Shown here piece after piece: positions 5,881 through 28,170 of a stretch of 34,851 nt of DNA. The DNA comes from a bacterium SM23_31. Lineage in GTDB: Bacteria; SM23-31. The position numbers and the translations under genes were made by a program. The DNA is taken from contig LJUD01000001.1 of NCBI GenBank assembly GCA_001304035.1, forward strand, positions 1-34,851. The letters run 5' to 3'. The notes beneath the pieces were generated by a model. That model saw only the letters and a list, made by a program, of their open reading frames with translations, did not search any database and was not told the origin of the DNA. Position 1 is the stretch's first letter; each line of letters opens with the position of its first letter.

Positions 5881-5948
5881 ATCAATATTTTTAGTCGCTT
5901 GAATAATGCCGGAATATCCGATTATTTTTAAATATTTGCAAATAACAT

Positions 5949-5977: not shown

Positions 5978-5985
5978 ATAACTTT

Positions 5986-6006: not shown

Positions 6007-6123
6007 GTTTAGTATATGTATAAAATTATTATCATAAGCAAATTCTTTTCCTAATCGGATTAGAAAATTACTAAATCTTGAATAATAAAAAATGTTATAT
6101 TTTTATGAACAGGATAGAACACT

Positions 6124-7110: not shown

Positions 7111-7114
7111 CAGA

Positions 7115-8611: not shown

Positions 8612-8613
8612 AT

Positions 8614-11941: not shown

Positions 11942-12385
11942 TCATCCCGTCAAGATATTAACTAACCTGCAAACCGATTGTTCCAATTCGGTGCTCAATC
12001 CTTCTTTAAGCTCAGTTGTTGCCGGTTGAATACCGAGTAGAAAAATTTTAGCTGGAATATGCTGGCAAATATAAGAAGCGAAAAGGTTCAGAGAAGCATT
12101 ATGTGTAGAGAATCCATATTCACTACATTCGTCAGGAGTAAAGATTTTCCAACTGCCGGGTTCGCCTTCAAAGGAGAGAGCATCTATAATGATAATAGTA
12201 TCCGGGCGATACTGGATAATAAACTTAGTATAATTTTCAGGAACTGTTCCAACGTCTAATATATTAGTAAAACCTGCCGAAGATAATTTTTCAACTAAAA
12301 CCGGACCAACCCCATCATCTCCCCGCTGGCGATTACCCACACCGATAAAAAGTACACGCCCGACAGCAATCTCGTCAAGATTCAC
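11942..12385 (-). CDS. Hydrogenase maturation endopeptidase (HycI type)
   Basis: FIGVGNRQRGDDGVG, IIIDAL...PG and FSTHNASL motifs. It is the last gene of the group-4 hydrogenase cluster. Confidence 0.8.
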   Translation of the reverse strand: MNLDEIAVGRVLFIGVGNRQRGDDGVGPVLVEKLSSAGFTNILDVGTVPENYTKFIIQYRPDTIIIIDALSFEGEPGSWKIFTPDECSEYGFSTHNASLNLFASYICQHIPAKIFLLGIQPATTELKEGLSTELEQSVCRLVNILTG

Positions 12386-12497: not shown

Positions 12498-13118
12498 TTA
12501 TTCAAATGTGCCCCACTCTTCGGAAAGGATTACGTTTCTGCGGCAGTCGGGACATAAAATCCGGGCATTATCATTCCTTCCGATTCTCCGTTTATCCCGT
12601 TCCGGTGTTTGGGCTACCAGTTCTAATTCCCCCAAACCGACAAGCATCAATGTCCAGTTTCCGGCAACACTCGAGCCTAACCGGTGGTAAATCCACTTCA
12701 AGTGATCCTTCGTAGCAAACGGTCTGCCGCATATTTCACATTTAACCATCTCTTTTTCAACTTTTTCAACAGCGTCTGCCCGATCAAAAACGGCAAGATC
12801 AAACTCCTGATTCTGAATAATCCCCTTTTTAGTAGTGCATTTTTCCACGCACGTTCCACAATAAACACAATTATCCAAATGGACGGTTAATATACGATAT
12901 ATCTTATCATCTTTCTGTTCTTCGGTAATTTCAATTGCATTAGCCGGACATACTTCGCTGCAAGCTCCGCATCCGATGCATTCTTCCTCCTGATATTCCG
13001 GTTTGCCCCGAAATTCTACAGGTATCGGAGGAGGAGATTTTGGAAAATCTATTGTATAGGGACCCGCTACTAATGCGATAACTGCTTCTTTTAATTCCCG
13101 TAGTTTCGGTTTCTTCAT
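12498..13118 (-). CDS. 2x[4Fe-4S] ferredoxin subunit, HycF/NuoI-like
   Basis: CIGCGACSEVCP and CVYCGTCVEKC, plus a C-terminal CEICGRPF...CPDCRR tail resembling the Cys tail of E. coli HycF. Confidence 0.75.
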   Translation of the reverse strand: MKKPKLRELKEAVIALVAGPYTIDFPKSPPPIPVEFRGKPEYQEEECIGCGACSEVCPANAIEITEEQKDDKIYRILTVHLDNCVYCGTCVEKCTTKKGIIQNQEFDLAVFDRADAVEKVEKEMVKCEICGRPFATKDHLKWIYHRLGSSVAGNWTLMLVGLGELELVAQTPERDKRRIGRNDNARILCPDCRRNVILSEEWGTFE

Positions 13119-13141
13119 GATTTTATTTCTCCGCCAATATT

Positions 13142-13492
13142 TCAGGAGTCTTCTTTTTTCAGCGAACCTTGCCGGTCTTCAAGGTACTTATCACATGCAC
13201 TGCCTTTCCATAATTTATAACCGGCTTTATGGGACGCTCGCGAAATGGCATGTGCCGCAGTAGGTGAAGTCATAAAAATAAACCAAATGCAAAGAATAGC
13301 TTTTATACCTACTGCATTTATACCATTATAAAAGACTGCCCCTAAGAGAATTAAGCACGTTCCTAAAGTAACACATTTTGTCGAACTCTGGAGCCGGTTG
13401 TATACATCAGGAAGCCGTACCAAGCCTAAACAGCCGGAAAAGTCGAAAATAAGTCCGCAAACGATCAAAATAAATCCGATTGTTTCAGTCAT
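13142..13492 (-). CDS. Mrp/Mnh antiporter subunit G-like
   Basis: Three TM segments with RLPDVYNRLQSSTK and SPTAAHAISRA motifs. Start moved to ATG 13492, which overlaps the upstream stop by 8 nt; the track start 13528 would overlap more. Confidence 0.75.
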   Translation of the reverse strand: MTETIGFILIVCGLIFDFSGCLGLVRLPDVYNRLQSSTKCVTLGTCLILLGAVFYNGINAVGIKAILCIWFIFMTSPTAAHAISRASHKAGYKLWKGSACDKYLEDRQGSLKKEDS

Positions 13493-13739
13493 CGTAAGTT
13501 CTTCCTTCCAGAAACTTTGATAAAGCAATCGATCCTATAAAGCTCAATAACGCCCAGGCTAAGGCAATGTTCATATATAAATCTTGCTTGCTTAATGCAG
13601 AGAATATCCCACAAAATCCAACTATAATAATTCCTAATATATCATTAGCCACTATCCGGTCGGATGGTGTCGGACCAAAGGCAATTCGGTACAGACACAT
13701 AAAACAACATATAATTAATACAACAATACAACCGGTCAT
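13485..13739 (-). CDS. Mrp/Mnh antiporter subunit F-like
   Basis: 84 aa, three hydrophobic helices, GPTPSDRIVAND motif. Confidence 0.7.
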   Translation of the reverse strand: MTGCIVVLIICCFMCLYRIAFGPTPSDRIVANDILGIIIVGFCGIFSALSKQDLYMNIALAWALLSFIGSIALSKFLEGRTYDD

Positions 13740-14257
13740 TCGAATATCCTCCTGAGAATATTTTCAAATTTATTTACGATAATAATAGTTGCGCCTTCTA
13801 TGTCTTTCGCAAGCACATTAATCCAATGAATATAGAGATATTCTCCTTCTATATCTACAGTTAAGGTACCCGGGGTTAACGTGATAGAATTTGCCAGAAA
13901 TGTCTTTGCAAGATCGGTTGTAAGGGCAGTACGAACCTTTACTATCCCTGGATTAATGGGCAAGTCCGGATGGAGCACCCGGTAGAGAACATCAAGATTT
14001 GCCTTGAATACACAATAGAGAAAATAAGGGATATATACTAAAAGCCAGAAAAGACGGCGTGGAGTAAATAGTAGTACCATGTTAGGGGGAAACAAATCCG
14101 ATAAAAAAAGCACAACGCCTGCTGCAACAATTACGCCGACAATTAAGGTCAACGGGTCTATTGTCCATGTAAGCGCTAACCAAATAAGAAACATTAAAAG
14201 AAACTCAAAAAGGCGTACTCTGAATTTGAATCCTGTTGACTTTTCTATTGACTCCAT
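13736..14257 (-). CDS. Mrp/Mnh antiporter subunit E-like
   Basis: 173 aa. N-terminal TM pair, then ANSITLTPGTLTVDI motif. 4-nt overlap with the F subunit. Confidence 0.7.
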   Translation of the reverse strand: MESIEKSTGFKFRVRLFEFLLMFLIWLALTWTIDPLTLIVGVIVAAGVVLFLSDLFPPNMVLLFTPRRLFWLLVYIPYFLYCVFKANLDVLYRVLHPDLPINPGIVKVRTALTTDLAKTFLANSITLTPGTLTVDIEGEYLYIHWINVLAKDIEGATIIIVNKFENILRRIFE

Positions 14258-14491
14258 ACGATATCCCGGAAAATTACATTATTTATTTGTTAAAAACGTC
14301 AAAGAGGTTTACGATGCCTCATTGACGCCCCGAGTATTCGGGGCGGCTACCGATTATATTTTTTATTATTACCTGCACATGATAGCCGCACACCTATAGT
14401 GTGCGCTTGATTTTGCCAAAGTTCTGCTAATATTAAAATTTGCGAAAGTCCTGATAATAGCATAATTCTAATAGCAAACAGCTAACAGTGA

Positions 14492-15973
14492 TTATGGAAC
14501 TACTTGTAATACCAGTTGTATATATTTTTGCTGGTCTATTACGGTATCCCGTGCTATCTCTAATAAAGTATTGCCGAAAAAGGGATATAGAAGACCGGAC
14601 AGGAGACATAATACTGCAAAAATAACAAGCACCGTCCCCATTAAAACCGGAACCTCCTTGATGTTCTTCAATTTCTCAGGGAGGTCTCCAAATATAGAAT
14701 ATCTCTGTACCTTAATGAAGGAGACCAGCGTAAGAAAACTGACACCAACGGTAACTGCTGCGATTGCATAATATTCCGCCTGAACCAGGGCAATAATAAT
14801 AAGCAATTTGCTCCAGAAACCGTTAAACGGGGGTATTCCGGATATAGAAAGTGATGCAATAGAGCATGAGCTTGAAGTAACCGGCATTCTTTTAAAGAGT
14901 CCGCCCATTTCCTTAAGATTTCTCGTGCCGGTACTGTATTCAACTGCCCCCGAGCATAAAAATAAAAGAGACTTGAAAAAAGCATGGTTCATCAAATGGA
15001 ACAAAGCTCCGAGTATGCCCAGAGGAGTAGCAAGCCCGATTCCAACCATTACATAACCCATCTGACTTATACTGTGATATGCTAAAAGCCGTTTGAAGTC
15101 CCACTGCCCCACAGCGAGTAATACACCGACAACCATCGACAATACTCCGAGGGACATCAATATTATATGAGTGATATTGGTCATACCGATAACATGGTAA
15201 ACGACACGAATGATAGCATAAATACCACAGGCTTTGATGAGTACTCCCGAGAGCATGGCAGAAATTGGTGCAGGGGCAGATGGGTGAGCATCCGGCAGCC
15301 ATGCATGAAATGGAACCATAGCACCTTTCAAGCCAAAACCCATAATAAAAAGCCCTTCTGCAAAGAGAACCGATCTGTTTATCCCGTTAGCCAAAATTGA
15401 GTTAGCCAAATCAGCCATGTTCAGTGTTCCAAAAGTAGCATATAAAATTGCAATACCCAGCAAAATTAATGTAGATGAAACACTTCCTAAAATCATATAT
15501 TTGAAAGAAGCTTCCAATTCTTCATGTTCGCATCCAAATCCCACCAGTGCATAGGAGGAAATAGTAGCAATCTCTAAAAACACAAATAAATTAAATATGT
15601 CACCTGTAATAACCACACCGCTCATTCCCGCTACCATTAACATAAAAAGTGAGTAAAACCGTATCTTGGATGTGTACATCTCCATATATTTAAATGAATA
15701 TAAAAGGGATAATAAACCCACGATATTTATAAGGAGTAATAATAATGTGCTAATACTATCAGAAACCAGCGTGATACCTATCGGGGGTATCCACTTTCCA
15801 ATAAAATATGAAAACGGTTCATGACCAATTAGAGCAATAACCATGATAAGTAAAATGATTTCTGCAATAGCCACAATGACTTCAACTAATTTGGTGAGCG
15901 ATTTCGGAAAAAGGAGAATAAGAAATGCTACGCCTAACGGAATAGCGACGAACAATGGATACAATTGCTGCAT
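14492..15973 (-). CDS. Antiporter-like proton/sodium-translocating subunit (MrpD/NuoM/N family)
   Basis: 493 aa and polytopic. Motifs WLPDAHPSAPAPISAMLSG and LLAYHSISQMGY. Confidence 0.85.
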   Translation of the reverse strand: MQQLYPLFVAIPLGVAFLILLFPKSLTKLVEVIVAIAEIILLIMVIALIGHEPFSYFIGKWIPPIGITLVSDSISTLLLLLINIVGLLSLLYSFKYMEMYTSKIRFYSLFMLMVAGMSGVVITGDIFNLFVFLEIATISSYALVGFGCEHEELEASFKYMILGSVSSTLILLGIAILYATFGTLNMADLANSILANGINRSVLFAEGLFIMGFGLKGAMVPFHAWLPDAHPSAPAPISAMLSGVLIKACGIYAIIRVVYHVIGMTNITHIILMSLGVLSMVVGVLLAVGQWDFKRLLAYHSISQMGYVMVGIGLATPLGILGALFHLMNHAFFKSLLFLCSGAVEYSTGTRNLKEMGGLFKRMPVTSSSCSIASLSISGIPPFNGFWSKLLIIIALVQAEYYAIAAVTVGVSFLTLVSFIKVQRYSIFGDLPEKLKNIKEVPVLMGTVLVIFAVLCLLSGLLYPFFGNTLLEIARDTVIDQQKYIQLVLQVVP

Positions 15974-16034
15974 AATTACCTATCTAACCCCAAATATAAT
16001 TTATGATGAGCAAACAGAAGTCTACAATTATTCT

Positions 16035-16385
16035 CTACCCTCTCAACCTGCTTATTTCAGACGTATCAAACGTTTTATATTTTTCGTAAAGACGTAAGGC
16101 GATACTGACCATCATGATTAAAACACCCAAACTAATTACAATGGAAGTTAATACTAATGCTTGTGGTAATGGGTCGACACTTTGTTGGGAAAACGTTTGC
16201 TTATTCATACCTTCAAAGAGAACAGGAGGAATTCCCCCTGATTTATAGCCAATTAAAATTAAAAAGAGATTTACCGCATAATCAAGAATTGCTATACCAA
16301 TAATTTTTTTTATAAGATGTTTTTTTGCTATTAAACAATACAATCCCATTACAAACAGGAAAAAACACATTAAGTAGATGGTCAT
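16035..16385 (-). CDS. MrpC/NuoK-like small membrane subunit
   Basis: 116 aa, three TM helices, DPLPQALVLTSIVI motif. Confidence 0.7.
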   Translation of the reverse strand: MTIYLMCFFLFVMGLYCLIAKKHLIKKIIGIAILDYAVNLFLILIGYKSGGIPPVLFEGMNKQTFSQQSVDPLPQALVLTSIVISLGVLIMMVSIALRLYEKYKTFDTSEISRLRG

Positions 16386-16397
16386 TGAAACTTCTCC

Positions 16398-16880
16398 TTA
16401 CAAATTACGATCTATATTACCTACATATTCCTCATCATTCTCATATTCTTCTGCATCGCCGACAAAGCGTCCAAAAAAAACAAGCAACACAAATATTGTA
16501 AAAATAGCGGATACAATGATTATGCTAATAGCTATATCTGCAAACGGAATCAAACCGGCGCTGTGTAAATGAAATTCCTTACCGTGATCTATGAAATTAA
16601 AAAAGAATGTCCCATCTATATAACCCAACAGGGCAATAGCCAGAAATGCCAGAGCTCCGATACAACTGAGAAAATGAGCTACATTTGTTCTCATTTTCTG
16701 AATGGCTTTTTCTCTTCCAAAAACCAGCATAATCAGGATAAAACCGCACGTTAGAATAACTCCGCCTGCGAAACCGCCTCCAACGCCTAAATGTCCAAAT
16801 AAAATAATGTTAATACCATAGAGAAAAATCAGTCCAATTACAAATTGGGTTACTTTCTTTACAATAAGACTCATACCCAT
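16398..16880 (-). CDS. MnhB/MrpB-domain membrane subunit
   Basis: GHLGVGGGFAGG motif (MnhB GHxxPGGGFxGG type) with four TM helices. Confidence 0.7.
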   Translation of the reverse strand: MGMSLIVKKVTQFVIGLIFLYGINIILFGHLGVGGGFAGGVILTCGFILIMLVFGREKAIQKMRTNVAHFLSCIGALAFLAIALLGYIDGTFFFNFIDHGKEFHLHSAGLIPFADIAISIIIVSAIFTIFVLLVFFGRFVGDAEEYENDEEYVGNIDRNL

Positions 16881-16913
16881 TTGAGTGCGCTCCTTTGTTT
16901 ACCGGTGTACCTA

Positions 16914-17444
16914 CTATAGGTTCACACCCCTTTTACGGCCGATTCTTCGCATTATAACTGTAGCACCTAATACTGATACGAAAAGAACCGTTGCTTCACC
17001 CAATGTATCATAGGCTCGATAGTCCAGTATTATAGAAGTTACTATATTGCTTGCCCCGGTTTCAGCCAGCCCGTTATCCAGATAATGTTGTGAAGTTCTC
17101 ATTAAAGACTCACCAAATGCATGCATTTCCAGAAATGCGTATGATGCGAATACCAGAAACAGCCCCACAAAGACCAAACTTGACACCATAGCAAAGGTAT
17201 CTCGATGTTTCTCGATGGCAGTATTATCCACAGAAATAGTCGCCCGAATTAAAATAACGAGTGCTAAAATTTCAACAACTACCTGAGTAATCGCAAGGTC
17301 CGGCGCTCCCAGCATCAAAAATAGTATACTGAGTGTAAAACCAACTATTCCAACCGATATGACCGAAGAAAGTAGATTGCGTGTTTCTATTGCAACAATT
17401 GATCCCAGAATCATAATCGCTAATAGGGTGTAAAAAACGAGCAT
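16914..17444 (-). CDS. MbhD/MbhE-like subunit (DUF4040 plus MrpA C-terminal/MnhB N-terminal-like segment)
   Basis: GAPDLAITQVVVE (DUF4040-like) and NIVTSIILDYRAYDTLGEATVLF motifs. Confidence 0.65.
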   Translation of the reverse strand: MLVFYTLLAIMILGSIVAIETRNLLSSVISVGIVGFTLSILFLMLGAPDLAITQVVVEILALVILIRATISVDNTAIEKHRDTFAMVSSLVFVGLFLVFASYAFLEMHAFGESLMRTSQHYLDNGLAETGASNIVTSIILDYRAYDTLGEATVLFVSVLGATVIMRRIGRKRGVNL

Positions 17445-17464
17445 AAAGCCCTCTCATTGAAAAT

Positions 17465-19291
17465 TTAGCGGACTAAAATGAACAAAAGAATTCCCAATCC
17501 TATAATACACCAGGACAGGTACGTAGATAAGACTCCGTTATGTAAAGCACGGAGGCTCTGAACTAAAATATTCCCGATACGACCGCCCAGATTGTAAATA
17601 TCAAACGTTCCTTTTTCACCGTCCCGGTATGCACCTTTTAAACCACCCATATCGATTATAGTATTATAAAAGTCCGTACCGTGAACAGGCTTCAGTCTGT
17701 CTGAAAACTCGCTACCTCCTACAAATACTTCTGCCTGCCTTTTTGTTAAGAATTTTCCGAGCAGAAATATTAACATACCAATGACGAGACCTGCTAAAAT
17801 CAGCCCGGTAGCCAGAGTAGGGTCCCATATTGCATCACTTGCGACAGGAACGGCACTCTGGGGATAACTTCCCTCTACTGCCGGGATTAACAGGTATTTC
17901 ATCGGCAAACTGGCAAAAACTCCAAATATAATGCACAATGCTGCCAGAACTACTAAAGGTGCACCCAATGAAAATCCTTCTTTTTTCATTTTCTCAGAAC
18001 CAGGCGCAGGGCTTCCAAAAAAGACAGAATGGATAACCTTGACAAATGAAGCAAGAGTTAAAGCACTACCAAACATTGCAGCAACGAGGAAAATGGGCTG
18101 ATTAATATCAACCAGACTCTGGTAGATTAACCATTTCGAAAAGAATCCATTTAATGGCGGAATACCGGAAATGGCAAGCGATGCTATAACCATTGATATA
18201 AATGTATACGGCAATATCCTTGCAAGACCGCCTAATTTATCCAAAGCGGTTGTTCCGGCACGGTTTTCTACAACAGCGCTTCCAAGAAACAAACAACTCT
18301 TATATATGGCATGATTTATCATGTGGAAAAGTCCACCGATAACCCCGACCATCGTTCCCGTCCCAATTCCCAGTACCATATATCCAACCTGGCTTACTGC
18401 GTGAAAAGAGAGGAGTTTTTTAAGGTTATGCTGAATGAGAGCCATCATAACGCTTACGATAATCGTAACAGCGCCGATAATTAACATGAGCATTGAAAGG
18501 CTATGGGAAACCTTGAAAATAGATAGATTGATTAATCCTAAGAAGTAAATTCCCAGCAATTTATCAAGCGCTGCCGGAAGAAACGCCATGACCGGTGTCG
18601 GAGCAGATTCTGAGATTGCAGGTATCCATGAATGAACCGGAATAGCTCCGGCTTTTGCCAGGGTTGCTACTAAAAAGAAGATAAATACAGCGGTTGTAAG
18701 CCCACTCTCAACGGGAATTGTCAATGCACTTATCCGGAGTGTACCATATTGAACCCATATAATAACTATTCCTAATAAAAGTAGTACATCGGAAAGACCC
18801 AATATTACAAAACTTTTCCCCGCTGCTGCATTAGCCGTACCTTTGCCCATATTTATGAGGTAATACAATAGAACCGTTGTAACTTCCCAGCATAACAGTA
18901 GCAGAAATAAATTATCGGCGGTAACAATCCCTATTGATACAGTGACAGTCCAAAGGATAAAGGGAAAATAAAACCGGGAAATTTCGCGGTTAGCATAATA
19001 TCCTGCGGAAAAGACGCTGATAATAACTCCAAAAAATGTAATAAAAAGTAATCCCATTAATCCTAATCGTGTCAGGGTAAAATCTAAGGAGAATGTGAGA
19101 TTGTCCACCGTGAACCATTCCCAACCGGCGGATATACCGGATTTTCCAATCAAAGCTAATGCGCTGATAAAACCCAGCAGCGCCCCTGCTATGGTTAAAA
19201 AATTTGTCAGAAAGGGAATTCGCCTGGGTAAAATGAATAACACTAATCCGAATAAACCTGTAAAAAAGACTGGATATAATAACTCATTCAT
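17465..19291 (-). CDS. Antiporter-like large membrane subunit (MrpA/NuoL/HycC family)
   Basis: 608 aa and polytopic. Motifs VHSWIPAISESAPTPVMAFL and LLSFHAVSQVGYM. Confidence 0.85.
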   Translation of the reverse strand: MNELLYPVFFTGLFGLVLFILPRRIPFLTNFLTIAGALLGFISALALIGKSGISAGWEWFTVDNLTFSLDFTLTRLGLMGLLFITFFGVIISVFSAGYYANREISRFYFPFILWTVTVSIGIVTADNLFLLLLCWEVTTVLLYYLINMGKGTANAAAGKSFVILGLSDVLLLLGIVIIWVQYGTLRISALTIPVESGLTTAVFIFFLVATLAKAGAIPVHSWIPAISESAPTPVMAFLPAALDKLLGIYFLGLINLSIFKVSHSLSMLMLIIGAVTIIVSVMMALIQHNLKKLLSFHAVSQVGYMVLGIGTGTMVGVIGGLFHMINHAIYKSCLFLGSAVVENRAGTTALDKLGGLARILPYTFISMVIASLAISGIPPLNGFFSKWLIYQSLVDINQPIFLVAAMFGSALTLASFVKVIHSVFFGSPAPGSEKMKKEGFSLGAPLVVLAALCIIFGVFASLPMKYLLIPAVEGSYPQSAVPVASDAIWDPTLATGLILAGLVIGMLIFLLGKFLTKRQAEVFVGGSEFSDRLKPVHGTDFYNTIIDMGGLKGAYRDGEKGTFDIYNLGGRIGNILVQSLRALHNGVLSTYLSWCIIGLGILLFILVR

Positions 19292-19429: not shown

Positions 19430-20644
19430 TCAAAATTCTAATTTCAAGGGAAGATCAGGTGGTCTTCCTAATTCCCTGGCAATTGCTTTTGTCTTTTCCT
19501 GTCCCATCCGTACCAGGTCATTGCCGGTATATATTATCTTTCCGGAACCGGGGTCAACAACTACTGCCATCCGTTCAGTACAACTGTAGCAGGGGTCGCA
19601 TGAGGCAAGAGTTATAGTAACATCACTGATAGATTCACCGATACAGGAAGCATGGAAGGATGGAACATTCACATTACTGGGTGCGCGAACCTTCCACCGT
19701 TCCGGCATATTCGTTCCGTTGGAGCGCACATAATGAATATCTTCACCCCTGGGGGCTTCGTAGCGTCCTATACCCTCTCCGACAGGTATTTGTTTTATTG
19801 TATTTAAAATAGGACCTTTTGGAAACTGTTTCACACACTGTTCAACGATTTTAGTGGATTCAATGATTTCCAACAATCGTACTGCCACTTTGGCAAAGAC
19901 ATCGCCATCTTTCCATACAATAACTTCCCAGTCTACTTCATCGTAAGCGCCGTAAGGTTCATCCCGCCTAACATCGGTATCGACTCCGGAAGCCCTTGCT
20001 GTAGGACCAACAACACACCAGTCTACAGCATCTTCATAGGTTAATACGCCAACATTTTTGGTACGGGAATGGATAACCGGGTCGTCGATTACCGCTTCCA
20101 ATAACATTTTTGTCTGTCCCCGGAGGGTACTCATGATTTCTAATAATTTGGGAAAATGTTTTTCATCAAGGTCGCGGCGTACGCCTCCGGGTTTCAAGAT
20201 ACTGGATGTTCGACGATTGCCCGTCAGCGCTTCAAGTATATCCAGGACCGGTTCCCGGTATTTCCATGCCCACATAAAGACCGTATTATATCCAATGAAA
20301 TGTCCGGCTAATCCCGCCCAGAGGAGGTGACTGTGACACCGTTCCAGCTCACCGAGTATCGTCCGAATATACGCTGTCCGTTTCGGAATTTCAATCCCTA
20401 AAAGATTTTCCACGGCATGGCAGAAACAGACCGTATGTGTAACCGAACAAATTCCGCAGATTCGCTCCGTCTGAATAACTACCTGATCATAAGTTTTGCT
20501 TTGCCCCAGCAATTCATGACCTTTATGTATATATCCCATATTGGCTTCTATATCGACAACCTTTTCCCCTTCGACCGTTAATAGAAAGTTTGCCGGTTCA
20601 TCTTGAAGAGGATGAAACGGACCAATGGGAATTACTGTGCTCAT
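19430..20644 (-). CDS. Group-4 [NiFe]-hydrogenase large subunit (NuoD/HycE/MbhL-like) with long C-terminal extension
   Basis: GPFHP, RICGICSVTH and DPCYSCTER motifs, followed by a 46-aa tail. ATGA overlap with the NuoC-like gene. Confidence 0.9.
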   Translation of the reverse strand: MSTVIPIGPFHPLQDEPANFLLTVEGEKVVDIEANMGYIHKGHELLGQSKTYDQVVIQTERICGICSVTHTVCFCHAVENLLGIEIPKRTAYIRTILGELERCHSHLLWAGLAGHFIGYNTVFMWAWKYREPVLDILEALTGNRRTSSILKPGGVRRDLDEKHFPKLLEIMSTLRGQTKMLLEAVIDDPVIHSRTKNVGVLTYEDAVDWCVVGPTARASGVDTDVRRDEPYGAYDEVDWEVIVWKDGDVFAKVAVRLLEIIESTKIVEQCVKQFPKGPILNTIKQIPVGEGIGRYEAPRGEDIHYVRSNGTNMPERWKVRAPSNVNVPSFHASCIGESISDVTITLASCDPCYSCTERMAVVVDPGSGKIIYTGNDLVRMGQEKTKAIARELGRPPDLPLKLEF

Positions 20645-21108
20645 GCTTCACCTATACTTTCTCTGAATTTTTCCAGGTCAAAGTCTTTTCGCAATGGATA
20701 TACATCTTCCGGGATACTACGAGCCTTGAACAGTCTTTTCAACTTGGGATGTCCCTTAAAGACCACACCTAAAAAATCGTGAATTTCCCGTTCAATCCAA
20801 TATGCGCCTTTCAGAATATCCTGGACACTGTCCAGCTCCGGCATATGTTTCGGAGTCGTTACCCGAATTGTAGCAACCAGGGGGAAACCATTAAATGAAA
20901 AGTGGTACATAACTTCAATGCCTTCCCGTACTTCTATCCCCGTTGCAGTAGAAAGCCTGCCCTTTTTTTCTTTATAAACATACTGAATAACTTCACGGAG
21001 GTCTTTCGGTTGAACCCGGACATACAGCCTCTTATCTGAAGCGGTTTCAAAGCGTACCTTTTCGGAAAAAGTCTCAGAAAGATAGAACGTCATTTCTTTG
21101 GCGGTCAT
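20641..21108 (-). CDS. NuoC/MbhK-like 30-kDa-family subunit (separate from the large subunit)
   Basis: GAYWIEREIHDFLGVVFKGHP motif. Start moved to ATG 21108 (ATGA overlap with the NuoB-like stop). The track start 21180 would overlap the upstream gene by 76 nt. Confidence 0.8.
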   Translation of the reverse strand: MTAKEMTFYLSETFSEKVRFETASDKRLYVRVQPKDLREVIQYVYKEKKGRLSTATGIEVREGIEVMYHFSFNGFPLVATIRVTTPKHMPELDSVQDILKGAYWIEREIHDFLGVVFKGHPKLKRLFKARSIPEDVYPLRKDFDLEKFRESIGEA

Positions 21109-21551
21109 TTTGCTACTCCATTTAAAGATTGCAGGGCTTTCACTATCCCCATAATGATAGCCTCCGGTCGGGGTGGACAACCAGGAATGTATACAATTAT
21201 TGCATTCGGATCGATAGCCCGAATAACCTTGTCCGGGGGACCTGACACACTGTACGCATCTTTAAAAATACCCATAGAACAGGCACATACGCCAACACAC
21301 GCTACAACACACGGCTTGGGAGTTTCCCGATATACCTGTTCTAAAGGTTCTTTGCAATGGGATGCTACCGGACCGCTGACAAGCAAAATATCAGCGTGAC
21401 GAGGGCTTCCCACAAGTTTTATCCCGAAACGTTCTATATCAAATCGAGGGGTTAAACAATCTAATATTTCTATATCACAATTATTGCAGCCGCTCGTCCC
21501 TACGTGATATACCCATGGAGACTTTATTAATGCTTTCTTAAATATATCCAT
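21105..21551 (-). CDS. Group-4 hydrogenase small subunit (NuoB/HycG/MbhJ-like)
   Basis: GCNNC, SPRHADILLVSG and IPGCPPRPE motifs. Confidence 0.85.
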   Translation of the reverse strand: MDIFKKALIKSPWVYHVGTSGCNNCDIEILDCLTPRFDIERFGIKLVGSPRHADILLVSGPVASHCKEPLEQVYRETPKPCVVACVGVCACSMGIFKDAYSVSGPPDKVIRAIDPNAIIVYIPGCPPRPEAIIMGIVKALQSLNGVAK

Positions 21552-21622: not shown

Positions 21623-22558
21623 TTAATAACCAAAATAGGCTAAAATCATTGCCAATATAGCAATTAGTGTCATCGGACCCCAGAAAAACCGCATTGCAGT
21701 ATCAATTCTTAACCGGGGATTCGTATTTTTTATTAGAATAAATACTACAGCGATAGCCAGAATTTTTAGAATCGACCACAGGATGTGCAAACCCGTGAAC
21801 GGCAGCCCTCCCAGAAAAATGAGCGATAAAAATATTGTCAGTACAAAAAAGGACATGGCTTGGGTTAATTTGATGAGGGCCAATGCCACCCCGGAGTATT
21901 CAAGTATAGCCCCTTCCATGAGTTCCGTATCGGCTTCCGCCATATCAAAGGGGGGTAAGCCTAATTTTGCGACCGTGCAGATAATCGCTACCAAAAAAGC
22001 CAATATAACGGAAATATTGGCAATGACAAATCCTCCCTCTTGTTGAATGAGTATAATATTACCAAGAGACAGAGTGTGTAACTTAAATGCTACTACCAAT
22101 ACAGATATGATAAACGGGAGTTCGTATCCGAGGGTAAGTTTCATCTCACGGCTCGCACCAATGGCAGAAAAAGGATTCCCCGAAGAGGTTCCTCCCAAAA
22201 CAATGGCAAGAGACGGTAATGCCAAAAGGTAAAATATAACAATCAAATCCCCAACAAAAGTTTTGGCAGGGTTGAGATTCGTTAACCATAAGATCATCGA
22301 AACGAGAGCAATTCCAACAAATCCGATAAGGGGCGCCAATAAAAAACCGGTTTTACTGCTTATTCTGGGTACAATTAATTCTTTGCCAAGGAGTTTCATT
22401 ACATCATAAAACGGCTGTAAAAATGGGGGCCCTTTACGCCATTGTACACGGGCAGAAACTTTCCGGTCTACCCATTGAAACACCAATCCAACGACAGCAG
22501 TGAACAGAATCCCCGGAAAGAAAAGAAACGCAACAATGTAAAAAGCCACATTATCCAT
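21623..22558 (-). CDS. NuoH/HycD/MbhM-like membrane subunit
   Basis: 311 aa. WVDRKVSARVQWRKGP and FDMAEADTELMEG motifs. Confidence 0.85.
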   Translation of the reverse strand: MDNVAFYIVAFLFFPGILFTAVVGLVFQWVDRKVSARVQWRKGPPFLQPFYDVMKLLGKELIVPRISSKTGFLLAPLIGFVGIALVSMILWLTNLNPAKTFVGDLIVIFYLLALPSLAIVLGGTSSGNPFSAIGASREMKLTLGYELPFIISVLVVAFKLHTLSLGNIILIQQEGGFVIANISVILAFLVAIICTVAKLGLPPFDMAEADTELMEGAILEYSGVALALIKLTQAMSFFVLTIFLSLIFLGGLPFTGLHILWSILKILAIAVVFILIKNTNPRLRIDTAMRFFWGPMTLIAILAMILAYFGY

Positions 22559-22592: not shown

Positions 22593-23342
22593 TTAAGAAA
22601 ATTGTACGCGCAATCCCTCTAAAGTTTTAAGATTTTCTTTAGAACGCACATCATCCGGGTCAAGCTCCACCGCCCGTCGAAAGGCTGCGATAGATGCATC
22701 CAGGTCTCCTTTCTTATAAAATGCTATACCCAGATGATAGTTGGCAATGGCATCATCCGGATTCGTTTCCAGAAATTTTTTAAATGTCTCAATTGTTTCG
22801 TCCGTTAGACCTTTTGTAGCGCAGACAATCCCTAAATGATAATACGCAATAATAAAATTCGGATGGGCTTCAATTAATTTTCTATAGGCTTCACAGGCTT
22901 CGTCCATTTTGCCCTGGTGGTAATATACACTTCCCAACCAATACAGGGCATTATGAAAATCCGGATTTAATTCTAATGCCTTTTTAAACTCCTTGACTGC
23001 TTTATCAATTTTTGCTTCCTGATGATATGCCAACCCGAGGCTGTAATGTATATCAGCCCTGTGGGGGGCTAAGGCGAGGGCACGTTCAAGATGATAAACC
23101 GCCTCTTTCAATTTGGCAGAGCGATAATATGCATTCCCGACATGGAGGTGAATATCTCCTCTGGGTTCTAATTTTAATATTTTTTCAAACTCTGCAATGG
23201 ACTCCAGATACAACCCTTTCAATTCCAATTCCCAGGCTCCCGCTAAAATAGACTGTACACCAGTAATTCTCAGGTCATATCCGCATTCAATACAATACTT
23301 ATTCTCAGGTAGATTGTCAGTTTTACAACGTGTGCATTTCAT
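22593..23342 (-). CDS. Zinc-ribbon plus TPR-repeat protein
   Basis: N-terminal CTRCKT...CIECG ribbon, then about 5-6 TPR-like units (repeated YYxxGxxxEAxxxxxKALELxP pattern). Confidence 0.7.
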   Translation of the reverse strand: MKCTRCKTDNLPENKYCIECGYDLRITGVQSILAGAWELELKGLYLESIAEFEKILKLEPRGDIHLHVGNAYYRSAKLKEAVYHLERALALAPHRADIHYSLGLAYHQEAKIDKAVKEFKKALELNPDFHNALYWLGSVYYHQGKMDEACEAYRKLIEAHPNFIIAYYHLGIVCATKGLTDETIETFKKFLETNPDDAIANYHLGIAFYKKGDLDASIAAFRRAVELDPDDVRSKENLKTLEGLRVQFS

Positions 23343-23379: not shown

Positions 23380-23871
23380 TTACATTCTTCGTATAATAGC
23401 ACGGGATGAAATCCGACCGCCTATCCATACTTCTTCAGCACTCGCCTCGGTGATTTCTTCAAAACTCAGTGCACCCGAAGTACAAGTCGCTACACATCTG
23501 GGGATTTTTTCATTTAATACCCGGTCTATACAGAGGTCACATTTTGCTGTAACATGCTTCATAAGGTCTATACTGATCACCCCAAATGGACAGGCAAATA
23601 CACAAGAATGACAACCGATGCATAATAAATTGGATCGATGAACAAATCCATATTCATCTTTTTGCAGTGCCTCTGTCGGACATGCTTCAACACAGGCGGG
23701 CTTTTCGCAATGCCGGCAATGGAGGGGCAGAATGGCGATTTCCCCAATCCTGCCGAGCATGACATTCGCCTGTTCATGATATCCGAGAGCACAGGCAGCA
23801 ACACAACTCTGGCATCCTATACACAGGTCAAGATCTAAAATAATTCGTTTATTAATTTTCTTCTTCTCCAT
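23380..23871 (-). CDS. Multi-[4Fe-4S] ferredoxin, HycB/DmsB-like
   Basis: CIGCQSCVAAC, CRHCEKPACVEACP, CIGCHSCVFACP and CDLC...C motifs. Confidence 0.8.
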   Translation of the reverse strand: MEKKKINKRIILDLDLCIGCQSCVAACALGYHEQANVMLGRIGEIAILPLHCRHCEKPACVEACPTEALQKDEYGFVHRSNLLCIGCHSCVFACPFGVISIDLMKHVTAKCDLCIDRVLNEKIPRCVATCTSGALSFEEITEASAEEVWIGGRISSRAIIRRM

Positions 23872-23878: not shown

Positions 23879-25717
23879 TCAGAGAAATTCTACGCTCACT
23901 TTTGCAGGTTTAATATTCAAATAGCCCCACTGGGGGAGCATTTCCCACTGCAACAGGCTCCGGATTTGTGGAAAATGAACCGGTGCAATGATCATCCCTT
24001 TTTCAGCTCGACGGCTTACTTTTACCGGGATAGTAATCTTATTTTCACTGGAACTTATCCGAACCATCCCCGAAATGTGCACTCCATTTTCCCCTTCTGC
24101 AATCATAGCTATTGGTTCCGGGCACATGCGCTGGGACCAGGATAAATACTGAGTAATTGCTCCATCACCCGAATGGGAAAAATCATTATTCGGAACCAGC
24201 ATTTTTTGATTAGATTCAACTGCTGAATTATCTTTTATTAAATCTTTAATCTCTATGAAGTGATTGGCAATATCCTCTTCGGTTTCCTGCGCTGCGGCTT
24301 CAGGTGGCTCGATTTGCTTTTTATCAAATCCTTTTTGGTGAAGAGCATCGATGAGAATGGATAGAATCCCTCCGGTTGTTTTTATATGTCCGGGAGGCGA
24401 TAAAACAGCGTCCAATTTCAGAGAGTTGCCCAACATATTAATAGTGGTGCCTGTTTTTTCAACCCAGGGAGCGGCAGGCAGTATGACATGTGAGAATCCC
24501 GTTGTATCATTAGGAAAAATGGAAGTGCTTAATAAAAAGTCGAGCTTCTTTATGGCATTGGTTGCCCGTGTGCCCGGAAAAGTCCTGATAATGTCGACAC
24601 CAAAATTCAATAATACTTTCAGGCTTCCTTTTTCAGCAGCTTCTATCATTTGTGAAGCGGTCATCCCTGCAGCGGGCTTAAAGTTAGCAATGGCTTCATG
24701 CATTCCCAGAGAATTGGCACCAGTAAAAACCGGAAGGAAATAACTATCCGTAGCATCCGATAGTGCCTGACATAATTCTGTTACCAAGTCTGCCCGATCA
24801 TATACACCAAAACCTGATACCAGGGTCACTATAGAAGGTTTTTCCCGCATCATCAAACCGGCGGCAGATTGAATTTGATCAAGGCTCACACCGGTGAGCT
24901 TGCAAATATCCTCGATTTCTATAGAGTCTAATACATGCTTAACGGCTGCTTTCCATGGTATAGCTTGTTGTTTACCTATTTGTTCAAGTAAGAGTATTAA
25001 GATACCCGTTAGAACCATTACTTCAGTTCCCGGATTAGCCCGCAGATGGAGGTCAGCAAACCATCCGGTATTTGAATTAGAAGATTCAAGGACTACCATC
25101 TTGTTAGCCCGCTGGTCGTATTTGGCTTTAAGAAAATGTCTTGATAGAACAGGGCTTACACCAAACACGTCCCCGACAATAAAAGATGTATGCATTCCAT
25201 CGATTTCTTCAATACTTGGCAGTCTTTTCTGAAAGAATGCTCCCTGCCGGATCTTAGCGAGAATAGGCTCGTCTTCTAATGCACAATAATCGATATGGGG
25301 GGTTCCGATAATTTGGGCGAGGTCTATTGCCTGCTCTGTTTCCTCAATGGTAAGATAAGGACTGAGCATAATACCTACACTCTCTGCCCCATTTTTCTCG
25401 ACCAGAGCGGCTATTTGCTCTATTATATCTGTCGTTACATTCTCCCAGTGTACGTCCCGGTATCCTGATGATTTCAGGATCCGGGGTCCCGGGATACGTT
25501 TCGGATGATGTAATAATTCAAATAAATAATTGCACTTGCCGCACAATGATCCCCGGTTAATGGGATTATCCAGTTGATATTCCAGTTCATTAGTAGCAAT
25601 GGGCTGATAATAAACCCTGTCTTCTCCTCGATTTACGGTTAATCCACACCCGAGTGAACAGAAAAAACAGATTGTATTTCGTGGTTCTTTCATACTTATT
25701 AGCTCATGTCTTATCAA
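23879..25717 (-). CDS. Molybdopterin-oxidoreductase-family subunit, FdhF-like but lacking formate-dehydrogenase catalytic residues
   Basis: N-terminal CFFCSLGCG...CGKC [4Fe-4S] motif and a C-terminal molybdopterin-binding-like barrel (ITIPVKVSRRAEKGMIIAPVHF). TTG start at 25717; ATG alternative at 25693. Confidence 0.75.
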   Translation of the reverse strand: MIRHELISMKEPRNTICFFCSLGCGLTVNRGEDRVYYQPIATNELEYQLDNPINRGSLCGKCNYLFELLHHPKRIPGPRILKSSGYRDVHWENVTTDIIEQIAALVEKNGAESVGIMLSPYLTIEETEQAIDLAQIIGTPHIDYCALEDEPILAKIRQGAFFQKRLPSIEEIDGMHTSFIVGDVFGVSPVLSRHFLKAKYDQRANKMVVLESSNSNTGWFADLHLRANPGTEVMVLTGILILLLEQIGKQQAIPWKAAVKHVLDSIEIEDICKLTGVSLDQIQSAAGLMMREKPSIVTLVSGFGVYDRADLVTELCQALSDATDSYFLPVFTGANSLGMHEAIANFKPAAGMTASQMIEAAEKGSLKVLLNFGVDIIRTFPGTRATNAIKKLDFLLSTSIFPNDTTGFSHVILPAAPWVEKTGTTINMLGNSLKLDAVLSPPGHIKTTGGILSILIDALHQKGFDKKQIEPPEAAAQETEEDIANHFIEIKDLIKDNSAVESNQKMLVPNNDFSHSGDGAITQYLSWSQRMCPEPIAMIAEGENGVHISGMVRISSSENKITIPVKVSRRAEKGMIIAPVHFPQIRSLLQWEMLPQWGYLNIKPAKVSVEFL

Positions 25718-25724: not shown

Positions 25725-26552
25725 TTAGCCCAAAACTCCGGGAAAGTCTTTAATCAGGTCATAATTCATATCCGGGCCGTCTTTACACAGATAATATGGG
25801 CCGACGTTGCATCGCCCGCATATCCCCATTCCACAGCTCATATTCCTGTTCATAGAAAGGTATATTTGCTTTGGAGTAAATTTGGCATTCAACAGACTTA
25901 AAGTGACAAATTTTAACATCACTTCCGGTCCACATACAACTGAATAGCTATTGTTGAGATTAATATCCAGAACTTTCAGTAATTCCGTAACTAATCCTAC
26001 ATTACCTTCCCATCCCGGATGGGGAGTGTCAATGGTAATGGTCATATCGACTTTTTTATATTTTGCCCATTCATCAAAAAACTTGTAATAGACTAATTCC
26101 TCCGGATTTTTTGCGCCATATTTGATAGATACACGTTCGACTTTGTCAATGTCATGAAAAAGAGCTAAGAGGAGGGCTCTCAGGGGCGCAAGTCCTACTC
26201 CGCCGCCAACTACCAAAATTTCCTTTTTATAAAACTTCTCCAAGGGATATCCCTTACCAAACGGTCCCCGTAATCCTACTATATCACCCGGCTTCAATTT
26301 ATGCAAGGCATCCGTTACTGTTCCTGCTTTGAGTACCGTAATTTCCAACCGTTCAGGTTCATAAGGTGAGGAAGACGGAGTAAACGGGGCTTCCCCCACA
26401 CCGGGAACGGTTAACTGCATAAACTGTCCTGCCCGGAAATGAATAGGGGGATCGGGACACGTTACAAATGTCTTAATAGTCGGTGTTTCAGTTATAACAT
26501 CTTCTAAAGGGAGAAATACCGGTGCAAATATATTTTCCATGATTCCTGCCAT
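25725..26552 (-). CDS. FAD/NAD(P)-binding [2Fe-2S] oxidoreductase subunit (AsrB / sulfhydrogenase gamma / PyrK-like)
   Basis: GGGVGLAPLR nucleotide-binding motif and C-terminal CGMGICGRCNV...C cluster motif. Confidence 0.8.
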   Translation of the reverse strand: MAGIMENIFAPVFLPLEDVITETPTIKTFVTCPDPPIHFRAGQFMQLTVPGVGEAPFTPSSSPYEPERLEITVLKAGTVTDALHKLKPGDIVGLRGPFGKGYPLEKFYKKEILVVGGGVGLAPLRALLLALFHDIDKVERVSIKYGAKNPEELVYYKFFDEWAKYKKVDMTITIDTPHPGWEGNVGLVTELLKVLDINLNNSYSVVCGPEVMLKFVTLSLLNAKFTPKQIYLSMNRNMSCGMGICGRCNVGPYYLCKDGPDMNYDLIKDFPGVLG

Positions 26553-26576: not shown

Positions 26577-27656
26577 CTACTTCAATTCAACATACTTTTC
26601 AATGTTCTTTAACACTTCACGTTTATCAATCTGTCCCATGCACGTTTCAATGCATCGACCGCATCCTGAACAAGCTTCAAATCCATAGTTTTTGACGAAC
26701 GAATCAAATTTATGATAATAATGATTTTTGAATCGGTCGACAAGGTGCAGTCTGGGTGTAATTCCTCCTGCCATGCGTGCATAACCTGCGTGAAAACATG
26801 AATCCCACACCTTCATCCGTTCATTCCCATCATCATGCTTCTGGTCATACAATAGGAAACAATAACACGTAGGGCACACATAATTACATCCGTTACATTC
26901 TACGCAGGTTTTGGAAACATCATGCCAAATTGGAGCATTAATGTTTTCTTCAATAATCCGCTGCCGTGATTCTGCTGTTTTATAATTTTGATTTTGGCGT
27001 TCGACGATTTTATTGAGTTTTGTTCTTTGTTGGTTTCGATGATTTATATGCTCTTTGGTTGCCTCCGTGAACAGGTCCAAGTGATCCTTAATAATTTTCT
27101 CTCCTTTTTCAGAACCGCTTTCAAAAATATAACCACCGTTTATGGGTGACATATTTAAATCGTATTCTTCTTCCGGATGCGGCTGTAATCCAACAACCGT
27201 GCAAAAACAATTCTCCAGTGCCTCTGTACAATCTCCCGAAATAATTACTGTGTTTTCACTATTATCGCTGTATAAGGGATCAACATATTCCCCTTTTAAA
27301 AAGATTGTATCCAATACCTTCTTTCCCAAAAGGTCGCATGCTTTCACGCCAAAAACTATTCGCTGCTTTTCAGAGGCTTCCACTGTGTCGGAGACCGGAA
27401 GATACTGTGCCACTACACATTTCGCCTGGAAAAATAATGCTTTTAAGAAAGGCAAAGCCGTTCGAAAAGGATTAAACAAAAATGATTCGGATTCGGCTTC
27501 CTTTCCATTCCATGAACTCAGAAAATACTTATTATCATGTGTATAAGGAACATATACAGTATTGGAGGAAGCTAACCGGGCTATTAATTGAGCAATATCA
27601 GTAAATTTTATATAATTCATTTTTCCATCTTCTGTATGCCCGTTAAATTTATGCAA
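26577..27656 (-). CDS. Iron-sulfur subunit (AsrA / sulfhydrogenase beta-like)
   Basis: GVKACD, CVECNGCNYVCPTCYCF and CSGCGRCIETC motifs. The track start is TTG 27656; ATG 27620 (MNYIKF) is an equally plausible start. Confidence 0.75.
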   Translation of the reverse strand: MHKFNGHTEDGKMNYIKFTDIAQLIARLASSNTVYVPYTHDNKYFLSSWNGKEAESESFLFNPFRTALPFLKALFFQAKCVVAQYLPVSDTVEASEKQRIVFGVKACDLLGKKVLDTIFLKGEYVDPLYSDNSENTVIISGDCTEALENCFCTVVGLQPHPEEEYDLNMSPINGGYIFESGSEKGEKIIKDHLDLFTEATKEHINHRNQQRTKLNKIVERQNQNYKTAESRQRIIEENINAPIWHDVSKTCVECNGCNYVCPTCYCFLLYDQKHDDGNERMKVWDSCFHAGYARMAGGITPRLHLVDRFKNHYYHKFDSFVKNYGFEACSGCGRCIETCMGQIDKREVLKNIEKYVELK

Positions 27657-27822: not shown

Positions 27823-28145
27823 GGTGTATAAAAAAAGCATATTATGCCGGAGGTTAACTTCCTCGTTAAAATAGTCAGCACATCTTATATCTCTTTTCAA
27901 TCGCTCTTCTAAACTCAACATGATCAAGAAAATAATCCGGACTCAATTATGCTCAAACGTGCAAGAAACGTGCGCATAAACTAAAAAATGTCTGAGCAAA
28001 ACAACGTTCACTAAACATAACGAAACAGTAGCTCTCCGCTCCACAAACTAACTTAACAGATAGTGTGCTGATATAACCTGTTCAGCATAAAATGCTTGCC
28101 CTAAAAAGCTACAAAAATTGTGCCATTCTCTAACATTTTCTACTT

Positions 28146-28170
28146 AATTGCGAATTAATTACGAATTATG
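28146..28170 (+). repeat. Short copy of the AATTACG-heptad repeat element
   Basis: aattgcgaattaattacgaattatg shares ttaattgcgaatta plus attacgaatt with the arms at 34395..34622. It overlaps the stop codon of the RsbW-like gene. Confidence 0.6.

Follow-up and report, generated by a model that had tools for sequence, protein, structure and literature searches.

A contig of bacterium SM23_31 (NCBI GenBank assembly GCA_001304035.1, contig LJUD01000001.1, positions 1 to 34,851; this whole stretch of 34,851 nucleotides is referred to here as the window) carries on its minus strand a gene for a formate dehydrogenase-like (Fdh-like) protein, embedded in an operon for a group 4 [NiFe] hydrogenase. This protein has none of three key residues of formate dehydrogenases (FDHs), namely the selenocysteine (Sec) or Cys metal ligand, the His next to it and the Arg that binds the substrate, and it can therefore be stated with high confidence that it does not function as a formate dehydrogenase. 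On balance, we favor the view that it would be a relic iron-sulfur (Fe-S) scaffold, analogous to the NuoG subunit of complex I, in an NAD(P)H-linked, ion-coupled hydrogenase of the Mrp-linked group 4 (4b-type). The class has already been described in silico, and the gene reported here is a further member of it (Matheus Carnevali et al., 2019, PMC6349859; PMC13582414, 2026).

Identity and Fold of the Fdh-Like Subunit

The gene under study is:

23879..25717, minus strand: Fdh-like subunit (open reading frame, Pfam, PDB and NCBIfam matches, AlphaFold2 and Foldseek)

Residues are numbered on the listed open reading frame (ORF), which runs from a TTG at 25717 to position 23879 through 612 open codons with no in-frame stop and hence, in agreement with the preliminary description of the sequence, no in-frame TGA. 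Homologs begin with MKE..., which corresponds to the ATG at 25693 on the minus strand (codon 9 of the listed ORF, MKEPRNT...). By this comparison the true start is probably the ATG at 25693, giving a protein of 604 amino acids (aa), and the listed TTG at 25717 is probably wrong.

Pfam recognizes a Molybdop_Fe4S4 domain (residues 14-70) and a Molybdopterin domain (82-453) in the protein and does not find the Molydop_binding domain. The best PDB sequence match obtained with phmmer is an F420-dependent FDH (9t1s_L, E 5.7e-28), and further matches include FdhF of the hydrogen-dependent CO2 reductase (7qv7_S) and Escherichia coli FdhH (1aa6, E 1.8e-16), with NuoG/Nqo3 appearing only at 2e-06. The NCBIfam model for the FDH alpha subunit (TIGR01591) gives 164 bits, below its curated cut-off of 666, and that for NuoG (TIGR01973) gives 77 bits, below its cut-off of 470. 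An AlphaFold2 model built from a 25-sequence family alignment scored a predicted local distance difference test (pLDDT) of 91.2 and a predicted template modeling score (pTM) of 0.92, and it shows a C-terminal beta-barrel, so that domain IV is present though shortened. Searched against the PDB with Foldseek, this model matches FDH and Nap structures at template modeling (TM) scores of 0.81-0.84 (0.84 for 7z0t_A, the FdhF chain of E. coli formate hydrogenlyase), and NuoG chains score lower, at 0.62-0.73. The predicted fold is that of the four-domain FdhF/FdhA type of molybdenum/tungsten bis-pyranopterin guanine dinucleotide (Mo/W-bisPGD) enzymes.

Loss of the Formate Dehydrogenase Active Site

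Four alignments bear on the active site. The first was a MAFFT L-INS-i alignment of the query, eight close homologs, E. coli FdhF and NuoG (fdhF and nuoG both taken from NC_000913) and 54 Cys-containing FDH/Nas relatives; the second was made with hmmalign to a hidden Markov model (HMM) built from the active enzymes alone; the third and fourth were phmmer pairwise alignments against PDB chains and a family-centered MAFFT alignment of 44 representatives. The codons concerned, all located through these alignments, are:

25541..25669, minus strand: motif CxxCxxxC...C of the [4Fe-4S] site FS0, together with the Lys44 equivalent (Cys17, Cys20, Cys24, Cys59 and Lys61)
25268..25276, minus strand: Glu148-Asp149-Glu150, in place of FdhF Val139/Sec140/His141 (also placed on the AlphaFold2 model)
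24725..24727, minus strand: Phe331, at the position of FdhF Arg333

In the MAFFT L-INS-i alignment, residues C8, C11, C15 and C42 of FdhF pair with C17, C20, C24 and C59 of the query, bearing out the match of the N-terminal [4Fe-4S] motif that had been proposed by hand, and K44 of FdhF is kept as K61. The same hand alignment had placed Asp149 on Sec140 and Glu150 on His141. This ungapped register is reproduced by MAFFT L-INS-i and by hmmalign, whereas the phmmer and family-centered MAFFT alignments introduce one gap and shift it by one residue, placing Sec140 on Glu148 and His141 on Asp149. As judged from the alignments, the register at Sec140/His141 is uncertain by one residue, which leaves the conclusion that the residues are lost unaffected: none of the four alignments puts a Cys, Sec, His or Arg at the catalytic positions. 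Arg333 pairs with Phe331 in the MAFFT L-INS-i alignment, as had been proposed, and among the 44 family representatives this column holds F, Y, P or L and never R. The earlier suggestion that all three residues of formate oxidation are missing thus stands, and the failure against TIGR01591 agrees with it.

Cys145, singled out beforehand as the residue that might instead occupy the metal-ligand position, was considered and rejected, as it pairs with Cys136 of FdhF (the 'CCAR' motif) and is present in only 5 of the 44 representatives. The family has no conserved Cys outside the FS0 site. In the hmmalign alignment two members, P0070 (PEDC, with the Cys after the Asp) and P0068 (with the Cys upstream of the motif), have a Cys at the ligand column, and neither Cys lies at the ligand position in the family-centered alignment.

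An Old and Diverged Clade

A word-indexed search returned nine clusters at 54-79% identity, one of which, annotated as candidate division KSB1, is the only taxonomically named close homolog; the next matches were genuine FDH/Nas proteins at 28% identity or less. An exhaustive profile search returned a far wider set of proteins of about 555-620 aa that align end to end. In a neighbor-joining tree of 145 sequences, the smallest clade holding the members verified by their loci (see below) comprises 43 of the 145, all of about 555-620 aa. By this tree, the Fdh-like proteins are one old, diverged monophyletic clade of at least 43 clusters at 50% identity. A scan of the GTDB species representatives with patterns from the close-family alignment matched 99 places, with no relatives among them, and the close family is absent from those representatives.

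Within the family, C59 is present in 44 of 44 representatives, and the other FS0 cysteines are missing only from N-terminally truncated sequences, with three exceptions. In P0075, P0080 and P0088 an Asp replaces the third FS0 Cys (C..C..D..C), which suggests that this sub-branch has a cluster with an Asp ligand or one that is otherwise modified.

Conservation Around the Cofactor Site

Conservation of the cofactor site was assessed over those alignment columns, 113 in number, in which at least 80% of the active enzymes agree. The Cys-less homologs of more than 750 aa with an N-terminal extension, provisionally regarded as NuoG-like, form a heterogeneous control group that retains 70% of the active consensus and probably mixes true NuoG with other Cys-less proteins resembling NAD-linked FDHs. 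E. coli NuoG was therefore taken as the cofactor-less yardstick. The query keeps 50 of the 113 columns and E. coli NuoG keeps 44, and the mean identity of the family to the active consensus is 44% (77 highly conserved columns).

Relative to FdhF, the query carries ESS in place of DPR202-204, Glu for Asp223, Asp-Ile for Asn404-Pro405, Ser for Asp429, His for Asp440, Thr for Asp478, Arg for Asn662 and Leu for Asp670, and the segment around FdhF 341-379 is deleted. Several positions that are 95-100% conserved in active enzymes are changed or variable, namely Arg460, Asp478, Asp440, Asp429 and the Gly580-Arg581 columns. Arg460, which is conserved in 100% of the active enzymes, is Gly in 86% of the family; the Asp478 column is variable (D/E/T/V); and the Asp202 position holds D in 30 of 44 representatives and A, G or S in some others. 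In both automatic alignments the family has a gap where Gly580-Arg581 (the TGR motif) would stand; the family's domain IV is poorly aligned by hmmalign to the active-enzyme HMM, and the C-terminal columns of that alignment were used for deletions only. One clade member has no recorded Pfam hit at all. From these alignments, the cofactor may well have been lost from the Fdh head.

The disappearance of the catalytic residues and of many cofactor-binding residues might also suggest a decaying pseudogene or a functionless remnant carried along in an operon. This idea is hardly credible and is rejected, given an intact ORF, a model pLDDT of 91, a position in the operon that is fixed in all eight loci described below, and a monophyletic clade that keeps its length and its FS0 cysteines. 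Across this family, at 25-30% identity, about 30 positions are invariant or nearly so.

Operon Context

A long minus-strand operon has the Fdh-like gene in third place. The two upstream neighbors of this gene and the ferredoxin gene that follows it are:

26577..27656, minus strand: homolog of the sulfhydrogenase I (SHI) beta subunit (HydB/ShyB) and of AsrA, a poly-[4Fe-4S] protein (Pfam/NCBIfam; PDB 9nez_B, sulfhydrogenase 1 beta, E 1e-33)
25725..26552, minus strand: homolog of SHI-gamma (HydG/ShyC) and of AsrB, with flavin adenine dinucleotide (FAD)-binding, NAD(P)-binding and [2Fe-2S] domains (Pfam/NCBIfam)
23380..23871, minus strand: ferredoxin of the HycB/CooF/DmsB type, with 16 Cys in four motifs and thus, as read from the sequence, four [4Fe-4S] clusters (Pfam/NCBIfam)

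The remainder of the operon encodes the hydrogenase and its membrane partners:

22593..23342, minus strand: tetratricopeptide repeat (TPR) protein with an N-terminal zinc-ribbon (Pfam, locus comparison)
21623..22558, minus strand: NuoH/MbhM/HycD-like membrane subunit (Pfam)
21105..21551, minus strand: NuoB/MbhJ-like hydrogenase small subunit (Pfam)
20641..21180, minus strand: NuoC/MbhK-like subunit (Pfam)
19430..20644, minus strand: large subunit of a group 4 [NiFe] hydrogenase, in which both Ni-binding motifs, RICGICSVTH and DPCYSCTER, are intact (sequence, Pfam, PDB)
12498..19291, minus strand: membrane/Mrp module and distal ferredoxin (Pfam/NCBIfam), made up of the next eight genes
19291-17465, minus strand: NuoL/MbhH-like
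17444-16914, minus strand: MbhD/E
16880-16398, minus strand: MnhB
16385-16035, minus strand: NuoK/MnhC
15973-14492, minus strand: MrpD
14257-13736, minus strand: MnhE
13528-13142, minus strand: MnhG
13118-12498, minus strand: NuoI/MbhN-like 2x[4Fe-4S] protein
11942..12385, minus strand: HycI-type hydrogenase maturation endopeptidase, the last gene of the operon (domain search)

The structures nearest to the large subunit are MbhL of group 4d (6cfw_L, 3.8e-86) and HycE of group 4a (7z0s_E, 5.7e-78), and the group 4b label applied here to the window hydrogenase derives from architecture and from the published descriptions of the class.

Eight loci were compared, comprising the window, L001 (KSB1, GCA_042564295.1), L004, L005 (Planctomycetota, GCA_016716265.1), L006, L007, L053 and L054. 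Fdh-like proteins of the seven other loci are 25-54% identical to the query (P0075, mentioned above, is that of L007). The gene order SHI-beta, SHI-gamma, Fdh-like protein, four-cluster ferredoxin and then hydrogenase and Mrp genes is found in eight of eight, and genes for molybdenum cofactor (Moco) biosynthesis, FdhD/FdhE or a formate transporter occur in none of them.

It could be argued that the protein is nonetheless a true formate dehydrogenase whose active site departs from the norm, and that the operon specifies an ordinary formate hydrogenlyase (FHL) or a formate-respiring group 4b complex. FDHs are the best matches in both sequence and structure, the order of Fdh, ferredoxin and hydrogenase genes resembles that of FHL, and group 4b is described by HydDB as formate-respiring (PMC5037454). 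With Sec/Cys140, His141 and Arg333 all replaced, with a TIGR01591 score far under the curated FDH cut-off, with an NAD(P)H module instead at every one of the eight loci and with no formate transporter or FdhD gene nearby, such an activity is judged very improbable.

The TPR gene also belongs to the conserved locus in part. A gene of matching size (229-251 aa) stands at its position in five of the eight loci, and homology is confirmed in four, the window, L001 (10120-10869), L004 (6100-6792) and L005 (12360-13049); the 251-aa gene of L054, which has no Pfam hit, is counted by size, and the TPR gene is absent from L006 and L053. The N-terminal zinc-ribbon is found in the window and in KSB1. Across phyla the TPR protein shows 37-39% identity, compared with about 30% for the Fdh-like protein at the same loci, and it may serve this type of hydrogenase in assembly or as an additional subunit. 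When it was used as an operon marker in a scan of GTDB genomes, 42 loci were recovered, of which only one, the Planctomycetota genome already found, has an Fdh-like gene, the others being generic TPR proteins.

Proposed Mechanism and Its Counterpoints

An analogy with NuoG, raised in the preliminary description, is reasonable because the query keeps a fraction of the active consensus (50 against 44 of 113 columns) close to that of NuoG, because otherwise conserved positions are changed, and because an NAD(P)H/FAD module lies directly upstream. According to the scheme favored here, the Fdh head of an FHL-like ancestor would have lost its catalysis, and probably its cofactor, and would persist as an Fe-S-carrying scaffold on the four-cluster ferredoxin, in the manner in which FdhF docks on HycB. 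The SHI-beta/gamma module would exchange electrons with NAD(P)(H), and the whole complex would be an ion-translocating NAD(P)H:H+/H2:NAD(P)+ oxidoreductase, in which the dead Fdh domain would fill the role of the Mo-enzyme-like domain and cluster N7 of NuoG in complex I. The standard potentials are -414 mV for H+/H2 and -320 mV for NAD(P)+/NAD(P)H. Electron transfer from H2 to NAD(P)+ accordingly releases about 18 kJ/mol, which could drive the export of ions.

Several observations weigh against this scheme. Asp149 is kept in 40 of the 44 representatives, within the local motif P-x-D-x-x-[LI]-L, and its column is conserved here while being variable in the long Cys-less homologs. Of the 44 representatives, 31 have R and 11 have K at the position of Lys44, a residue that in FDHs connects FS0 to the pterin. 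Near-invariant polar residues stand at former cofactor-contact columns (Asp149, Asp183, Glu232, Asp375, Glu420 and Arg586), and their conservation shows selection acting at that site. Transfer from NADH to H2 is uphill under standard conditions and would be possible only with an ion gradient or at very low H2 pressure, and the direction and coupling of the complex are speculative. Lastly, in a published AlphaFold3 model of the class, the Fdh-like protein terminates an Fe-S branch of its own, which the authors read as leading to a third catalytic site (PMC13582414). Some of the polar columns are kept by E. coli NuoG too and are not diagnostic, and in the AlphaFold2 model, by DSSP, Asp149 directly precedes a predicted helix (150-158), so that a role as helix N-cap might account for its conservation without a metal.

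Much of the same evidence would suit a protein that is still a Mo/W-bisPGD enzyme, with the metal held by Asp149 (or Glu148) or without a protein ligand, acting on a substrate other than formate and coupling H2/H+, NAD(P)(H) and a substrate X, perhaps by confurcation or bifurcation. Elsewhere in the superfamily, as in NarG, dimethyl sulfoxide (DMSO) reductase and arsenite oxidase, the metal carries an Asp, a Ser or no protein ligand. The best argument for such an enzyme is the near-invariance of Asp149 in a family so diverged. The FS0 cysteines and a Lys/Arg at the Lys44 position are likewise conserved, and the ribose-binding positions stay acidic (D/E in 34 of 44 at the Asp202 position; at that of Asp223, Glu232 in 40 of 44 and Asp in 4 of 44). 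The fold, the domain IV barrel included, is intact and confidently predicted. The best argument to the contrary is that residues conserved at 95-100% in active FDH/Nas/Nap relatives are lost or variable to a NuoG-like extent. Compared with FdhF the protein lacks about 100 residues, among them the segment around 341-379 and part of domain IV; the residue preceding Asp149 (E, T, D or A in the family) and that at the Arg333 position are not conserved; no Moco-related or FdhD/FdhE gene accompanies the eight loci; and there is no similarity to the Asp-ligated type II enzymes. An enzyme of this general kind is considered unlikely, though with a real chance of being correct. Its more specific form, an active FDH-clade Mo/W-bisPGD enzyme with Asp149 as metal ligand, a new substrate and a place in a membrane-bound, ion-coupled machine working three ways, by confurcation or bifurcation, between H2, NAD(P)H and that substrate, must be called somewhat more doubtful. 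A Mo/W site with an Asp ligand, as in NarG-type enzymes, had been entertained in the preliminary description alongside the NuoG analogy; kinship with NarG-type enzymes was not borne out: no NarG/Nxr/Ebd-type similarity appears among the PDB or NCBIfam matches, the best of which are FDH, Nas and Nap.

Second Hydrogenase Cluster and Possible Regulation

A plus-strand cluster at 4045-11794 is convergent with the group 4 operon and consists of:

4045-5814, plus strand: 589-aa fusion of two receiver domains, a glycine-cleavage H-protein (GCV_H, lipoyl-type) domain and a C-terminal HycI-like protease domain
6124-7110, plus strand: cytoplasmic [NiFe] small subunit without a signal region
7034-8611, plus strand: [NiFe] large subunit, whose nearest structure is Mycobacterium smegmatis Huc, group 2a (7utd_A, 1e-108)
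8551-9063, plus strand: HycI-type protease
9060-10364, plus strand: PAS histidine kinase
10361-11794, plus strand: sigma-54 activator/response regulator

L005 and L053 likewise have a histidine kinase paired with a sigma-54 activator, located directly upstream of the operon. A tentative promoter element was noted in the window:

28111..28125, minus strand: candidate sigma-54 -24/-12 element TGGCACAATTTTTGT, with 1 mismatch, lying some 455 nt upstream of the operon's first gene

TGGCAC-N5-TTGC is matched with a single mismatch at just two places in the window, 3980-3994 (plus strand) and 28111-28125 (minus strand). Both are intergenic and correctly oriented, one upstream of each hydrogenase cluster, the count itself being not above chance (2 against 1.3 expected). 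The second cluster may serve to sense H2 or to take it up, and so control the neighboring operon. Were its hydrogenase an H2 sensor, the arrangement would most naturally be read as one of H2-induced expression and H2 uptake, and the combination of a group-2-type hydrogenase, a PAS kinase and a sigma-54 activator hints faintly at H2-responsive control and hence at uptake.

Two ORF overlaps of about 76 nt, at 21105-21180 (minus strand) between the NuoB-like and NuoC-like genes and at 7034-7110 (plus strand) between the second hydrogenase's small and large subunits, are probably both artefacts of upstream TTG starts in a mechanical ORF list. Further upstream of the operon, a 627-aa ORF at 28702-30585 (minus strand), with a signal-peptide-like N-terminus and no Pfam hit, precedes a gene for an RsbW/SpoIIAB-type anti-sigma kinase (28159-28599).

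Significance

Should the scaffold reading prove true, the clade would show, independently and for a second time, the change from which the NADH-input arm of complex I is thought to have arisen, since in both cases an FDH head on a membrane hydrogenase would have lost catalysis and stayed on as an Fe-S scaffold, a flavoprotein taking over the input of electrons. The clade would further mark out a direct link between H2 and NAD(P)H in a membrane-bound, ion-coupled enzyme; a reaction of this kind has long been postulated in the energetics of anaerobes and syntrophs, for which, to our knowledge, the enzyme has not been identified. The relevance of the gene thus lies in complex I evolution and in H2/NAD(P)H energetics, the in silico point itself having been published in 2019 and 2026. 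In metagenome surveys, genes of this clade are annotated as 'formate dehydrogenase' or 'molybdopterin oxidoreductase', and formate metabolism should not be inferred from them.

Comparison With Known Systems

An 'enigmatic' group 4 hydrogenase was described in Saganbacteria RX5A, in a cluster where a molybdopterin oxidoreductase that 'could not be identified as a formate dehydrogenase' accompanies genes resembling asrA, asrB and cooF, and its hydrogenase has relatives in Zixibacteria and Omnitrophica (Matheus Carnevali et al., 2019, Nat Commun, main text and Supplementary Note 5; PMC6349859). More recently, about half of the group 4b Fdh sequences were reported to be without a Cys or Sec for Mo coordination, their clusters co-occurring with SHI-gamma and SHI-beta homologs in phyla that include KSB1; an AlphaFold3 model gave an Fe-S network with three branches, to the hydrogenase, SHI-gamma and the Fdh-like protein, and bifurcation or confurcation with a substrate was proposed (Front Microbiol, September 2026, section 16; PMC13582414). 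No biochemical data on this hydrogenase class were found in the literature. The window shares with these clusters the AsrA/SHI-beta and AsrB/SHI-gamma homologs, the Cys/Sec-less Fdh, the CooF/HycB-like ferredoxin, the hydrogenase core and the Mrp-type subunits, in the same order, but its large subunit is of the ordinary CxxC type and not the Sec variant. Beyond the published accounts, the present analysis adds that His141 and Arg333 are lost, that cofactor contacts have decayed more widely, that the Asp149 motif and the TPR gene are conserved, and that a cluster of hydrogenase and sigma-54 regulator genes adjoins the operon.

The top-ranking profile hits that keep the active-site His are P0096 (Cys-His; L008 10001-11968) and P0089 (Thr-His; L009 2558-4471), both of which are without Arg333. 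They are not in an SHI-beta/gamma context, their neighbors being HdrB/C-like (CCG) genes, an HdrA-like gene of about 1090 aa, MvhD/FlpD and a group 4 hydrogenase, and these loci are another uncharacterized combination of Fdh-like protein and hydrogenase; P0105 lies in an unrelated context.

The soluble sulfhydrogenase I of Pyrococcus furiosus (group 3b, 9nez), in which the beta and gamma subunits oxidize NADPH, also has adjacent beta and gamma homologs in beta-then-gamma order, but in the window these accompany a membrane-bound group 4 hydrogenase and an Fdh-like subunit, and not the alpha/delta dimer of a group 3b enzyme. With E. coli FdhF of FHL (7z0t, 1fdo) the Fdh-like protein shares the four-domain fold (TM 0.82-0.84), the FS0 motif, Lys44 and a gene position beside those for a HycB-type ferredoxin with four clusters and for a group 4 hydrogenase. 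It differs in the absence of Sec140, His141 and Arg333, in being about 100 residues shorter and only about 18% identical, and in the replacement of many residues of the molybdopterin guanine dinucleotide (MGD) environment; its partner hydrogenase, moreover, has an Mrp link and stands nearer to MbhL than HycE.

The C-terminal domain of NuoG/Nqo3 resembles the Fdh-like protein in its FDH-like ancestry, in the loss of the ligand Cys and catalytic residues, in the retention of an FS0-type cluster (the off-pathway N7 in NuoG), in a similar kept fraction of the consensus and in its place in a complex-I-family machine beside an NAD(P)H-oxidizing flavoprotein module. The NuoG analogy is thus plausible, but membership of the NuoG family was considered and rejected, as the TIGR01973 score is 77 against 470, the structure is nearer to FDH and Nap, the neighbors are not NuoE/F, and the N-terminal 2Fe-2S/4Fe-4S ([FeFe]-hydrogenase-like) domain, with clusters N1b, N4 and N5, is missing: FS0 begins at residue 17, whereas in E. 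coli NuoG about 220 residues lie ahead of it. The flavoprotein partner is of the SHI-gamma/beta type (FAD) rather than NuoE/NuoF (flavin mononucleotide), and the ligand-site Asp is conserved where the long, provisionally NuoG-like homologs vary. Cluster A1 of FdhF superposes on the off-pathway cluster N7 of Nqo3, while the docking of FdhF differs from that of NuoG, which points to independent recruitment events (PMC9474812). The Fdh-like protein presumably docks as in FHL, and its clade would represent another independent recruitment event.

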